Shown in pieces: positions 21,886 through 43,230 of a stretch of 64,000 nt of DNA. Location: assembly GCA_963754655.1 (NCBI GenBank), contig CAVWGN010000001.1:1824001-1888000 (forward strand), given 5' to 3'. The first letter of the stretch is position 1. Each line of letters opens with the position of its first letter. The notes beneath the pieces were generated by a model, which was not told where the DNA came from, searched no databases, and worked only from the letters and a program-made list of their open reading frames with translations. This stretch comes from an uncultured Chlamydiae bacterium. Lineage in GTDB: Bacteria > Chlamydiota > Chlamydiia > Chlamydiales > Parachlamydiaceae. Made by a program: the position numbers and the translations under genes.

Positions 21886-22379
21886 TAGTACTCAACCACA
21901 TTAGTTTTTGCCTATTGAGATGTTTTTAAATTCCTAGGTGTTAAGGTAAGAGATGAGCGTAGGCTAAGCGACGCATTCAGTCGCCCGCCGCTTCGCTCTG
22001 GGCTCTAGGTAAGGGGGATATGGACCCACCGTTCGGTCGCCCTCCGGGCTCGGTCACGGTGGGCTAGGATCAGTCGTCCTCCGGACTCTAGCGGCATTAT
22101 CAAAACGCCTTGACTAGCATTCTAACAGTATTACCAAGCACCTTACCTAACATTCAATGGCTTCTACATTGCTGCTAGAGTCCGTAGGACGACTGATCCT
22201 AGCCCACCGTGACCGAGCCCGGAGGGCGACCGAACGGTGGGTCCATATCCCCCTTACCTAGAGCCAGAGCGAAGCGGCGGGCGACTGAATGCGTCGCTTA
22301 GCCTACGCTCATCTCTTACCTTAACACCTAGGAATTTAAAACCATCTCAATAGGCAAAAACTAATGTGGTTGAGTACTA
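21886..22379. repeat. Palindrome family B copy 1 (~210-bp arms, ~70-bp centre)
   Basis: TAGTACTCAACCACATTAG...CTCTAGCGGCA is the reverse complement of TGCTGCTAGAG...CTAATGTGGTTGAGTACTA. Confidence 0.95.
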
Positions 22380-22521
22380 CGCGTAATTATACCAGAGCAA
22401 ATTAAAAAATTTAAATTTTTTAATTCATTTTTTAAAGAAAGGGCCACATTTGATCTTAATAATGGAGGATATTTGCGTTAGAGGCTGTCCCAACATGACC
22501 TATTTAAATGTCGAGCTAACT

Positions 22522-23559
22522 TTACTTTAAATTCTCTATAATAATTTGGCGCAATGCCTCTATCCAAGCGGGATGAGAATTAAGTCCTTCAACTAATTGC
22601 AATTCTTCTCCTCCCATTTTTTTAAATTCACGTCCATATTCCTGAGCAATCTCATAAGTCGTTTCCAAACAGTCGCAAACAAAGGAAGGGCTAAAAACAA
22701 GAAGACGTTTATATCCTTTCTGTGCGCAATCATGGATCACTTTACTTGTATATGGTTGAATCCAAGGTTCCTTACCCAAACGAGATTGAAAACAAATCTT
22801 ATAATTTTTTTCAGACAATTGCAATTGTTTCGCTATTCCATGCGCTGTTGCATAACATTGCGCTTTATAGCAGAAGCGATTTTCTTGACATAATCTTTGA
22901 CAACAAGAATCTGATAAACAACCTCCATTCGGATTAGCTTTGCGAATTTGCCTTTCAGGTAATCCATGGAAACTAAATAAAATATGATCATATGAAGAAA
23001 TATCATATTGCCTCCCACGTGTGCAAAAAGCTTCAATCAAGGCAGGATGATCAAAATAATGATTCATAAAAATCAATTTTGGAAAAACGGTCCAGTATTG
23101 AAGGTATTGCATGATCTTTTGATACACAGAGCCAGTTGTTGCTGAAGCGTATTGAGGAAAAAGAGGAAGAATCATTAACTCTTCCACTTGCTCGCTTTTA
23201 AGCTTTTCTAATCCTTCTACAATGGATGGAAGCTGATAACGCATGGCCAGAACAACTTGGTAGGTAGGTCCTAGAGCTTGCTGCAGCTTTTCTTGAACAT
23301 GCTGTCCATGAATCAAAAGAGGAGAGCCCTCCGCTGTCCATAAACGGCTATATTGCTCGGCCGATTGCTTATAGCGGAAAGGAACAATTGCCCCTCTTAC
23401 CAAGAGCTGTCTCTTAATCCAAGAACGATCAATCACTCGACCATCTGTTAAAAATTCGGTGAGATAGCGAAAGACGTCTTTTGGGTGTGGAGAAATGGGA
23501 GTTCCTAAATTAACAATTAAAACTCCCCTCTTATGTCCTTTAGTCTTGCTTATCTTCAT
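22522..23559 (-). CDS. hemH: Ferrochelatase
   Basis: [37 protein letters not shown] and DCLET; Cys-rich insert. Confidence 0.95.
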
Positions 23560-41258: not shown

Positions 41259-42821
41259 ATGCAAACTTTAATGCCACCCCATCTTTTAAATAATAACACG
41301 GGTGATAGTGTTTCAATTTGGATGGAAGAAGAAATTGCCCCCTTTCCTCCATTGAATCAAGATCTAACAACAGATGTTTGTATTGTGGGGGGTGGCTTCA
41401 TTGGCCTGACTTGTGCCTATTTTTTGCTTCAGCGAGGACTTTCAGTGAGTGTGATTGAAGGAGGTTCACTAGGAGGAGGTCAATCTTCTCGAACAACCGG
41501 ACATTTAGCTTGGTCATTAGATGATCGTTTTTTTGATTTGGAAAAGCTTTTTGGATTAGAAGGAGCCCGCATAGCCGCTGAAAGCCATCACGAAGCAATC
41601 AAAACAATTGAAAAAATCGTTCAAAAAGAACGCATTCTTTGCGATTTAGAAAAATTGGATGCTTATTTATTTTTGTCTCCACACGATAGCCCTGACATCT
41701 TGGAAAAAGAATGGTCAACGCTCCAAAAAATTGGCATGCCTGTCCAAAAATTGGAACGAGCTCCGCTTCGCTCCTTTGATACAGGTCCTTGTTTGCAATT
41801 TCCTGATCAGGCTCAATTTCATATTTTTAAGTATTTAAAAGGGTTAATTCATGCCATCGTAAGTAAGAATGGCAAAATTTATTCTCACACTCATGTCCAT
41901 CGCATTCAAGATGGCTCCCCTTGTTATGTTGTCACAGATCATCATCATATTATCACAGCAAAGTCTGTGATTGTTGCAACCAATACTCCAGTTAACGACC
42001 GTTTTATGATTCATAGTAAGCAGGCCCCTTATCGCACTTATGCTATTGCAGGTTCCGTTCCTAAAAATTCAGTCGCACGGGGACTTTATTATGACACTCA
42101 GGATCCTTATCATTATATTCGCCTTCAAAGACATGAAAAAGACGCTAACCTTGATTGGTTGATTGTTGGAGGAGAAGATCACAAGACTGGACAAGAGGCG
42201 GATATTTTTGAAAAATATCTTCGGCTTGAAGATTGGACACGCCAACGTTTTCCCATGCTCCAAGAGATCTCTTATCGATGGTCAGGCCAAGTCATTGAAC
42301 CCGTTGATTCATTAGCCTTTATCGGTCGTAATCCGCATGACAAACATGTCTACATTGCTACAGGAGATTCAGGAAATGGACTTACACATGGAACCATAGC
42401 GGGTCTATTGATCACAGATTTAATTGTCGAAGGCTTTCATCCATGGGCCGAAGTTTATGATCCTTCCCGTAAGACGTTGCAAGCTGCGGGAGAATATGCC
42501 AAAGAAAATTTCAATGTTGCTGTTCAATATGGCGAATGGGTGACGCCTGGCGAGGTTGAGCATAGTAAACAAATTTTACCCGGTACAGGCGCTTTAATTC
42601 GCGAGGGATTAAAAAAATATGCTGTTTATCGAGATGAAAAAGGCCGTTTACATTGTTTTTCAGCGACTTGTCCGCATTTAGGGGGAATTGTGAAATGGAA
42701 CCCAGGAGAAAAAAGCTGGGATTGCCCCTGCCATGGATCGCGCTTTGGCATCGATGGTCAAGTCCTCAATGGTCCAGCCATTGAGGGTTTATCCCCCGCT
42801 TCGCAAACCTTACAAGAATAG
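41259..42821 (+). CDS. FAD-dependent oxidoreductase with C-terminal Rieske domain (YhfW-like)
   Basis: DVCIVGGGFIG; CPHLG...WDCPCHGSRF. Confidence 0.92.
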   Translation: MQTLMPPHLLNNNTGDSVSIWMEEEIAPFPPLNQDLTTDVCIVGGGFIGLTCAYFLLQRGLSVSVIEGGSLGGGQSSRTTGHLAWSLDDRFFDLEKLFGLEGARIAAESHHEAIKTIEKIVQKERILCDLEKLDAYLFLSPHDSPDILEKEWSTLQKIGMPVQKLERAPLRSFDTGPCLQFPDQAQFHIFKYLKGLIHAIVSKNGKIYSHTHVHRIQDGSPCYVVTDHHHIITAKSVIVATNTPVNDRFMIHSKQAPYRTYAIAGSVPKNSVARGLYYDTQDPYHYIRLQRHEKDANLDWLIVGGEDHKTGQEADIFEKYLRLEDWTRQRFPMLQEISYRWSGQVIEPVDSLAFIGRNPHDKHVYIATGDSGNGLTHGTIAGLLITDLIVEGFHPWAEVYDPSRKTLQAAGEYAKENFNVAVQYGEWVTPGEVEHSKQILPGTGALIREGLKKYAVYRDEKGRLHCFSATCPHLGGIVKWNPGEKSWDCPCHGSRFGIDGQVLNGPAIEGLSPASQTLQE

Positions 42822-42840
42822 TTTTGCCTATTAGGATGAA

Positions 42841-43230
42841 CGGCTTTAAAATCTTATGCGTTAAACTAAGAGAGGAGCGTACGCGAAGCGATGCATTCAG
42901 TCGCCCGCCGCTTCGCTCTGGGCTCTGTGTGGAGGGATTTAAACCCACCGTTCGGTCGCCCTCCGGGCTCGGTCACGGTGGGCTAGAAACAGTCGTCCTA
43001 CGGACTCTAGCAGCAATTTAAAAGCCATTGAATGCTAGTCAAGGCGTTCTGATAATGCCGCTAGAGTCCGTAGGACGACTGTTTCTAGCCCACCGTGACC
43101 GAGCCCGGAGGGCGACCGAACGGTGGGTTTAAATCCATCCACACAGAGCCCAGAGCGAAGCGGCGGGCGACTGAATGCATCGCTTCGCGTACGCTCTTCT
43201 CTTAGCTTAACGCATAAGGGTTTAATGCCG
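42841..43230. repeat. Palindrome family B copy 2 (~175-bp arms), centre inverted relative to copy 1
   Basis: 42841-~43017 is the reverse complement of ~43054-43230; core shared with 21886-22379. Confidence 0.94.

Follow-up and report, generated by a model that had tools for sequence, protein, structure and literature searches.

We examined a 64,000-nucleotide stretch (the window) of contig CAVWGN010000001.1, from an uncultured Chlamydiae bacterium of the Parachlamydiaceae (assembly GCA_963754655.1), which carries two giant palindromes belonging to a dispersed repeat family that we refer to as family B. The family is built in layers and carries no gene, and at its core stands a doublet of a module that also flanks a Y1 transposase gene; it has probably spread as composite MITEs (miniature transposable elements bounded by inverted repeats) moved by DDE-type enzymes, and the arms of each copy are probably homogenized after insertion by copying from one arm to the other. 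Four features on which this reading builds are directly visible, namely the layering of the elements, the link between module and gene, duplications of target sequence at insertion sites, and changes mirrored between the two arms of a copy. The genome itself (G000) comprises 3.16 Mb in two contigs (C1 and C2) and is 96.7 % complete; for comparison we used other genomes (G001, G002, G015 and G016) and stretches fetched from relatives' DNA (L-numbers), to which one of the searches contributed its best 30 loci.

Arm symmetry across family B

The palindromes lie where an earlier, sequence-only reading had placed them, and all seven strings that it had quoted were found on the arms to which it had assigned them. 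In copy 1 the arms (21886–22092 and 22174–22379) align over 206 bases with two mismatches and one gap around a spacer of 81 nt, and in copy 2 (42841–43011 and 43060–43230) six of 171 positions mismatch and the spacer measures 48 nt. By comparison, the left arms of the two copies differ from each other by 22 mismatches and two gaps over 169 positions. As single-stranded DNA (ssDNA), copy 2 has a fold energy of −238 kcal/mol (z = −42.8), a stability that none of 100 shuffled sequences attained. A single arm taken as a whole folds no better than its shuffles (z = −0.25); as such, the three hairpins that we assign to each arm rest on conservation and motif symmetry, and not on energy.

In order to compare arms across the genome, we collected 121 matches to the B core in G000, which resolved into 46 inverted pairs and 29 singles, so that 92 of the matches sit in inverted pairs, a few pairings over long gaps being doubtful. 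Two near-full arms were present in 32 of the 46 pairs, and arm analysis was confined to 26 of them whose spacer did not exceed 100 nt; the remaining 20 pairs (short arms or spacer > 100 nt) were left out of the arm tree. Arm sides were labelled by the asymmetric spacer in an alignment of the 52 arms. Using this set, we found an arm distance of 0.029 within loci (n = 26) and of 0.115 between loci, both for arms of the same side and for those of opposite sides (n = 650 each). The nearest neighbour of an arm was its own partner alone in 28 of the 52 cases, a tie in eight and another arm in 16, and on the arm tree the side label required 23 changes compared with a shuffled mean of 17.7, i.e. sides were not clustered beyond chance. 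From a total of 240 departures from consensus, 164 were mirrored in the partner arm and 76 were not, whilst random pairing of arms gave a mean of 35 mirrored departures and a maximum of 73 (2000 trials); moreover, 15 of the 26 loci carried at least three mirrored changes relative to their nearest other locus. Thus, the claim of the sequence-only reading that many differences between copies recur in the partner arm is borne out, and arms group by locus rather than by side. A small number of mismatch classes (6/69) were common to two or three loci on the same side, some of them perhaps as parallel changes.

Within each arm lies a module of ∼115 nt with three hairpins (h1, h2 and h3), and two such modules stand head to head around an asymmetric spacer of 48–84 nt. 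Throughout the 52 arms the letters of the hairpins are nearly invariant and those of the linkers vary; the h2–h3 linker measures 9 nt in 51 arms and occurs in ten sequence versions, and a GTAG-type foot is absent from the alignment. Conserved stems and a constant h2–h3 spacing, set among drifting but mirrored linkers, are as would be expected of an ssDNA signal recognized by a protein, the linkers being neutral. We do not claim co-phylogeny of spacer and arms, as their distances showed no correlation (Spearman 0.12, p = 0.27, 14 loci). DNA of this kind makes up 186 loci, 90.5 kb and ∼2.9 % of the genome. Two small near-perfect palindromes (C1:273476–273647 and C1:287393–287561) look like B elements that have lost their centre through a deletion at h1, and at C1:1323800–1324340 a B element contains its whole spacer twice, inverted, around an inserted element, which amounts to palindrome growth across the centre. 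Furthermore, one strand has GCGAAGC at the B h1 loop (42920–42927 in copy 2, minus strand) and likewise at the h2 loop of a sister repeat family, family A; this heptamer would form an unusually stable DNA mini-hairpin.

All 32 two-armed loci fall outside long open reading frames (ORFs), and only three lie between divergent genes, compared with 203 of 784 large gaps (p = 0.02). Such a distribution might suggest that the host preserves the hairpin, as a 3′ structure of transcripts, a terminator or a determinant of mRNA stability, and that the mirrored changes are compensatory. The score of family A against the Rfam motif Acido-Lenti-1, which is close to the cut-off, also speaks for this. We consider this very unlikely, however. 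Harm to promoters explains the avoidance of divergent gaps equally well; two independent mutations would be required for every mirrored indel or block of several bases in the freely varying linkers, and for every mirrored change that harms a conserved motif; and copy 2 is missing at the corresponding site in all three congeners, which are too diverged for a target duplication to be read.

The linked Y1 transposase

The sequence-only reading had associated the hairpins with REPINs (doublets of repetitive extragenic palindromic, or REP, sequences) and with the REP-associated tyrosine transposases (RAYTs, of the HUH/Y1 type) that mobilize them. In G000 we detected nine PF01797 matches. All five full-length Y1 proteins tested pass the cut-off of the IS200/IS605 model, and on the REP-tyrosine-transposase model NF047646 the same five score at most 25 bits (cut-off 80), with no match for the B-linked protein. 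The tested proteins of G000 carry HuH and the motif Y-x3-Q-x2-HH (one as an HY variant); among 50 homologue rows, Y-x3-Q-x2-[HY]H was present in 49, 16 of them retrieved with a peptide containing the motif, and Y-x3-NP in none. Judged by this motif and the IS200/IS605 model, the linked proteins are predicted subclass-1.2 (IS200-like) Y1 transposases and not RAYTs.

One such gene (C1:2429353–2429802), which retains HuH and the catalytic tyrosine, adjoins a B doublet, and a fragment 90 % identical to it lies ∼120 bp from another; its closest named relative is from a Chlamydiales bacterium (68 %). In a tree of the 50 homologues, from which L047 was omitted as redundant with a row already included, the B-linked gene belongs to a clade of nine rows (support 100/99). 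By pattern match, the B-type module flanks the gene on both sides in seven of these nine rows (and in seven of the eight relatives among them) versus three of the 41 others, and on at least one side in eight of nine versus six of 41. Whole doublets stand beside the Y1 gene in L021 and L023. In these relatives both flanking modules are turned with h1 towards the gene, and therefore the doublet is not simply an element that has lost its gene; rather, from the order of the hairpins, it looks like two outer ends joined together. The proposed link between the hairpins and a Y1/HUH gene thus stands, whilst its attribution to a RAYT does not.

As the sequence-only reading had stated, the window contains no intact RAYT gene; what remains there of a sister Y1 gene is a 56-nt 3′ relic at 27965–28020. 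Together with the hairpin module that follows it, this subclass-1.2 relic extends over 27965–28049, and many similar relics occur genome-wide. Five more Y1 genes of subclass-1.2 type (C1:395750–396241, 2542103–2542555, 2544233–2544685, 2802159–2802605 and 2939306–2939758) each adjoin a different hairpin module that likewise forms dispersed palindromes, and one of the five sits between inverted repeats of 199 bp. A further Y1 fragment near a B locus (C1:492043), which by eye looks like the IS200/IS605-type gene of C1:1646422, was excluded from the links to family B.

Shells, movement and the upkeep of symmetry

Around the core doublet lie up to two nested shells, middle (M) and outer (D), and it is at the ends of these shells that signs of insertion are found. 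The M end is a 20-base repeat that fits the consensus CAT-------AA--TAA given, with repeats of 10–12 bp, for the IS231 subgroup (PMC2266710, Table 1); in D-shelled copies, including both in the window, it is degenerate at the second base. Both M ends are present in 21 of the 32 two-armed loci. Direct repeats of 11 bp (10–11 of 11 matching) flank C1:1149099, C1:2894991 and a shell-only element at C1:2324898. For 11 elements of G000 inserted in hairpin targets, the flanks of the M shell are direct in three cases, inverted in seven and ambiguous in one, and in eight stretches from relatives they are direct (9–11 bp) in five and inverted in three. Of 301 genomes searched within the order, 34 contain an M-type end; a reversed control gave one match in all. 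In two of eight relatives' stretches (L094 and L095) such ends bound an IS4-family transposase (NF033592 over cut-off), and in L096–L098 their cargo consists of hairpin doublets. As for the D shell, CTAG precedes 144 of 203 ends, and symmetry extends at least six bases beyond the end in only three of 72 pairs. An IS630 insertion sequence (IS) of G000 has CTAG|TACT termini as in the D shell, and these 4 end bases with their CTAG flank are all that the two have in common. With regard to an autonomous D element, the search returned two near-identical metagenome stretches with a D-like end and no transposase between paired ends. IS701 was also considered as a source, its end consensus fitting in part, but G000 has no PF13546 match.

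As the symmetry ends at the shell ends, and as one-sided mismatches are common to several copies, whole elements likely move as composite MITEs. The insertion marks of the dispersed copies look like duplications of DDE type rather than signs of Y1 movement; mobilization by a RAYT is not supported. In the mechanism that we propose, the Y1 enzyme would have made the first doublet; DDE enzymes acting in trans on the IS231-type and IS630-like shell ends would then have moved whole, double-armed copies; and after insertion the arms would be homogenized in place during replication, by template switching or gene conversion, both template switching and recombination being described as routes by which imperfect inverted repeats are corrected (PMC5941160). 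The earlier idea that one arm is copied from the other is thus retained as a likely cause of their likeness; its version in which fold-back synthesis rebuilds one arm at every insertion fits poorly, because the asymmetric spacer is inherited and 6/69 mismatch classes recur on the same side. Two observations point to events in place. In copy 2 a core with one mismatch in 114 positions lies within asymmetric D remnants that differ at 12 of 41, and at C2:24233 and C1:1323800 a host repeat continues collinearly on the far side of the insertion, even though the left copy of the target forms an inverted and not a direct repeat.

A different account would make the doublet a true REPIN-like replicator, excised as ssDNA by the subclass-1.2 Y1 enzyme, its 200-base hairpin intermediate being corrected or partly resynthesized before it reinserts with matched arms, and the shells being mere passengers. 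Several observations agree with this: both B-clade gene copies in G000 lie next to B doublets, as do the genes of L021 and L023; the intact gene keeps its catalytic residues; mutS is present; hairpins and 9-nt spacing are preserved in nearly every arm; and G001, G015 and G016 contain B-like doublets whose outer arms are different. Nevertheless, we regard it as rather improbable, given that the dispersed copies are bounded by DDE-type termini and by duplications of 11 bp or CTAG, that six same-side mismatch classes are shared between loci, and that the core of copy 2 has stayed near-perfect in spite of the decay of this copy.

Composite MITEs with arm-to-arm copying nonetheless face a number of difficulties. 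The Y1 gene of G000 has the module on one side only, the upstream one being lacking, with a reversed partial h3 beside the stop codon. Inverted flanks (10/11) also border an autonomous 1.5-kb IS in L095, where hairpin-centred copying is unlikely, and thus recombination between copies can leave the same mark. Shared ancestry suffices for five young sibling loci, which have 0–1 mirrored differences from copy 1 or from each other, and for family A, whose arms are identical in 105 of 200; private mirrored changes elsewhere could stem from parent copies since lost. We saw no clear gradient of mismatches from the spacer outward (a count that leaves out four of the 26 loci, whose outer parts do not match), and the loci with a spacer insert (six, with 0–16 mismatches) are too few for a test. 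With regard to movement, a search of G000 with one query, from L095, returned no transposase with M-type ends, and the inner terminal repeat of the IS630 is unlike that of the D shell; no cognate mover has accordingly been identified. Central deletion, too, can yield symmetric shells, as at C1:2894991, which retains its direct repeat. Finally, the lack of sbcD does not explain why this genome in particular is so loaded, since only six of 73 family genomes have the gene over cut-off.

The sbcCD genes, to which the sequence-only reading had drawn attention, encode a hairpin nuclease that acts on a 246-bp interrupted palindrome in Escherichia coli (PMC3315005). No sbcD was found in G000 at its 96.7 % completeness; sbcC was sought only with a Staphylococcus-specific model, which is uninformative. 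A lack of SbcCD would let 200-base hairpins persist, and is a permissive rather than a sufficient cause. More tentatively still, subclass-1.2 Y1 enzymes might represent a second, independent source of REPIN-like elements, joining the outer ends of three-hairpin (Acido-Lenti-1-type) modules with the 48-nt spacer as the junction; in a host without SbcCD such palindromes could act as MITE factories, in which copying from arm to arm would mirror any transposon end that landed next to them and so give ever larger composites with two identical ends.

We also asked whether amplification, fold-back in long reads or polishing might have produced the palindromes or given them their symmetry. Some indels within loci fall in G runs and may be errors, and polishing could remove residual differences between arms. 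An artefact is scarcely credible, however, in view of the conserved asymmetric spacer, the sharp shell ends with target duplications, the different unique genes on either side of the elements, and related doublets in three other assemblies. These are the B-like doublets mentioned above, which have other arm letters and were found in three of 40 other genomes searched; G002, in turn, keeps the gene order around copy 2 and lacks the element. Sequencing run X1, available as contigs only and matching at 9 % of words, is possibly the source sample and is not counted as independent evidence; its contigs give a depth of 26–37 on the core compared with 0–6 elsewhere, one of them crosses the spacer, and none contains a joint that skips the element, the depth being too low to prove anything. 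Where copy 2 would lie, one congener (L066; G001:C135, upstream of the gene for the ABC ATPase) carries another palindrome, of D-like kind, in which changes are mirrored as well.

Copy 1 is an intact D–M–core element, and copy 2 an older one with decayed D arms (Table 1).

Table 1. Parts of the two family B palindromes and their flanking genes (positions in the window)
Feature	Position	Strand	Remarks
Copy 1, flanking gene	18937..21873	-	Alpha-amylase-domain protein, 978 aa
Copy 1, extra inverted partial outer-shell end	21838..21884		Pairs with the left end of copy 1 to give a second palindrome, 21838–21935
Copy 1, left outer shell (D)	21889..21932	+	IS630-like end; preceded by TTAG (CTAG at most D ends); 1 mismatch/44 vs right D arm
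Copy 1, left middle shell (M)	21933..21977	+	Degenerate IS231-type end and ∼25 nt
Copy 1, left three-hairpin module	21978..22092	+	h1 21978–22004, variable linker, h2 22025–22063, 9-nt linker, h3 22071–22087
Copy 1, asymmetric spacer	22093..22173		81 nt; the 48-nt form with one half tandemly duplicated
Copy 1, right three-hairpin module	22174..22287	-	
Copy 1, right middle shell (M)	22288..22332	-	
Copy 1, right outer shell (D)	22333..22376	-	Followed by CTAC
Copy 1, flanking gene	22522..23559	-	Ferrochelatase
Copy 2, flanking gene	41223..42821	+	Flavin adenine dinucleotide (FAD) oxidoreductase with Rieske domain; 3′ end overlaps D remnant
Copy 2, left D-shell remnant	42807..42852	+	Decayed; 12 mismatches and 3 gaps/41 vs right remnant
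Copy 2, left middle shell (M)	42853..42897	+	2 mismatches/45 vs right M arm
Copy 2, left three-hairpin module	42898..43011	+	1 mismatch/114 vs right module; 12 mirrored differences from nearest other locus
Copy 2, asymmetric spacer	43012..43059		48 nt; orientation opposite to copy 1 spacer
Copy 2, right three-hairpin module	43060..43173	-	
Copy 2, right middle shell (M)	43174..43218	-	
Copy 2, right D-shell remnant	43219..43266	-	Decayed
Copy 2, flanking gene	43387..45198	+	ABC ATPase (ABC_tran with ABC_tran_CTD)

Elsewhere in the window, family A, which numbers ∼100 inverted pairs genome-wide, is represented at 6007–8098 by a doublet that sits within two more shells and is interrupted by an IS5/IS1182-like DDE element (ORF 6544–7671; ten genome copies), and by three more doublets (28067–28345, 49523–49870 and 55764–56059), two of which are truncated or fused to D-shell and IS ends. 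The longest inverted matches of the window are unrelated to family B and come from two DUF4116 repeat genes in opposite orientation (26218–27954 and 34845–36110; ∼80 % alike). Other features include a gene with ice-binding-like and DUF11 domains (60748–62931) and a cobalamin riboswitch (25738–25931) upstream of an unannotated ORF of 664 aa (23540–25534). A viral scan returned one locus.

Comparison with known systems

Like the REPIN–RAYT systems, family B is gene-less and intergenic and is made up of inverted doublets; their palindromic unit is found beside a Y1/HUH gene of low copy number too, and in both central deletions leave smaller palindromes (PMC3116915; PMC3337134); for REPINs, compensatory or mirrored changes on both sides of the hairpin have likewise been reported (Bertels & Rainey, 2011; PMC3116915). 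REPINs are, however, tied in the reports cited here only to RAYT groups 2 and 3 (bioRxiv 10.1101/2021.07.10.451892; PMC3337134), whereas the enzyme linked to family B is of class 1, subclass 1.2. Its unit is a 115-nt module of three hairpins rather than a REP of 20–40 nt with a GTAG-type foot, and its copies bear DDE-type shells and target duplications. The earlier description as an unusually large REPIN-like system is accurate as to the inverted doublets and a unit flanking a Y1 gene, whilst the giant size comes from the nested shells. Family B is REPIN-like in structure and composite-MITE-like in movement, and is not a REPIN–RAYT system.

For the D shell we compared IS630-type MITEs; the likeness lies in the CTAG-flanked TACT termini shared with the IS630 of G000. 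In its terminal consensus, and at some insertions in a direct duplication of 11 bp, the M shell resembles the IS231-subgroup MITEs and mobile insertion cassettes of the IS4 family (De Palmenaer et al., 2008; PMC2266710). Unlike either type, family B carries as cargo a hairpin doublet of putative Y1 origin, its ends are usually mirror-identical far inward, and a cognate transposase was not found in G000.

The TnpA-Y1 enzymes of subclass 1.2 share with those described here the Y-x3-Q-x2-HH motif, a length of ∼150 aa, low copy number and a relationship to IS200 (Quentin et al., 2018; PMC6006769). They are described there as generally lacking typical terminal IS200 structures and as occurring mostly in Cyanobacteria and Bacteroidetes, whereas the present genes, in a chlamydial lineage, stand between inverted copies of a three-hairpin module that is also scattered as doublets. 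TIRtrons/TIRYTs likewise have a Y1 gene between long inverted repeats, which recur as dimers at other places in the genome (Di Nocera et al., 2013; PMC3733652). According to Quentin et al. (PMC6006769), 20 of 26 TIRYTs belong to subclass 2.1 with a helix-turn-helix extension and the other six are also of class 2; the B-linked proteins possess neither this extension nor Y-x3-NP.

The correction of imperfect repeats toward perfect ones has a parallel in the concerted evolution of inverted-repeat arms reported by Lavi et al. (2018; PMC5941160), where arms are < 20 bp, as opposed to 170–250 bp in a dispersed mobile family here. By eye, the h2–h3 unit also shares its geometry of stem, 9-nt linker and stem with Acido-Lenti-1 (Rfam RF01687; Weinberg et al., 2010; PMC2864571), a motif listed as being of unknown function (PMC2864571; bioRxiv 10.64898/2026.10.21.760802). 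Amongst 150 scored candidates in G000, 148 matched RF01687, 11 of them over cut-off, and those checked for position were arms of family A, which scores 36–39 bits against a cut-off of 37. No match to family B in the window was obtained at E-values up to 10, and a B-type module in L021 scored 25 bits against the same cut-off. With Rfam as a whole, neither palindrome gave a match at the gathering score, and at E-values up to 10 only generic miRNA-type hairpin models appeared, far below cut-off.

The literature searched, with supplements and subscription papers outside its scope (the supplements of PMC6006769 and PMC2864571 could bear on the matter), contains no description of these palindromes or of a subclass-1.2 repeat family. 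REP doublets, MITEs and template switching are each known singly and explain the elements in outline; unreported in that literature are their combination and the link between a subclass-1.2 enzyme and the three-hairpin module, to which the elements add an unusually clear record of copying between arms. A Y1 subclass described in print as having no terminal structures thereby gains a repeat family, and the link runs counter to the view that REPINs belong to two RAYT groups only. It also suggests that the orphan Acido-Lenti-1 'RNA' is possibly a DNA signal. Moreover, with dozens of natural quasi-palindromes of 170–250 bp, of various ages and with a spacer that marks their sides, the rate of conversion from arm to arm becomes measurable.

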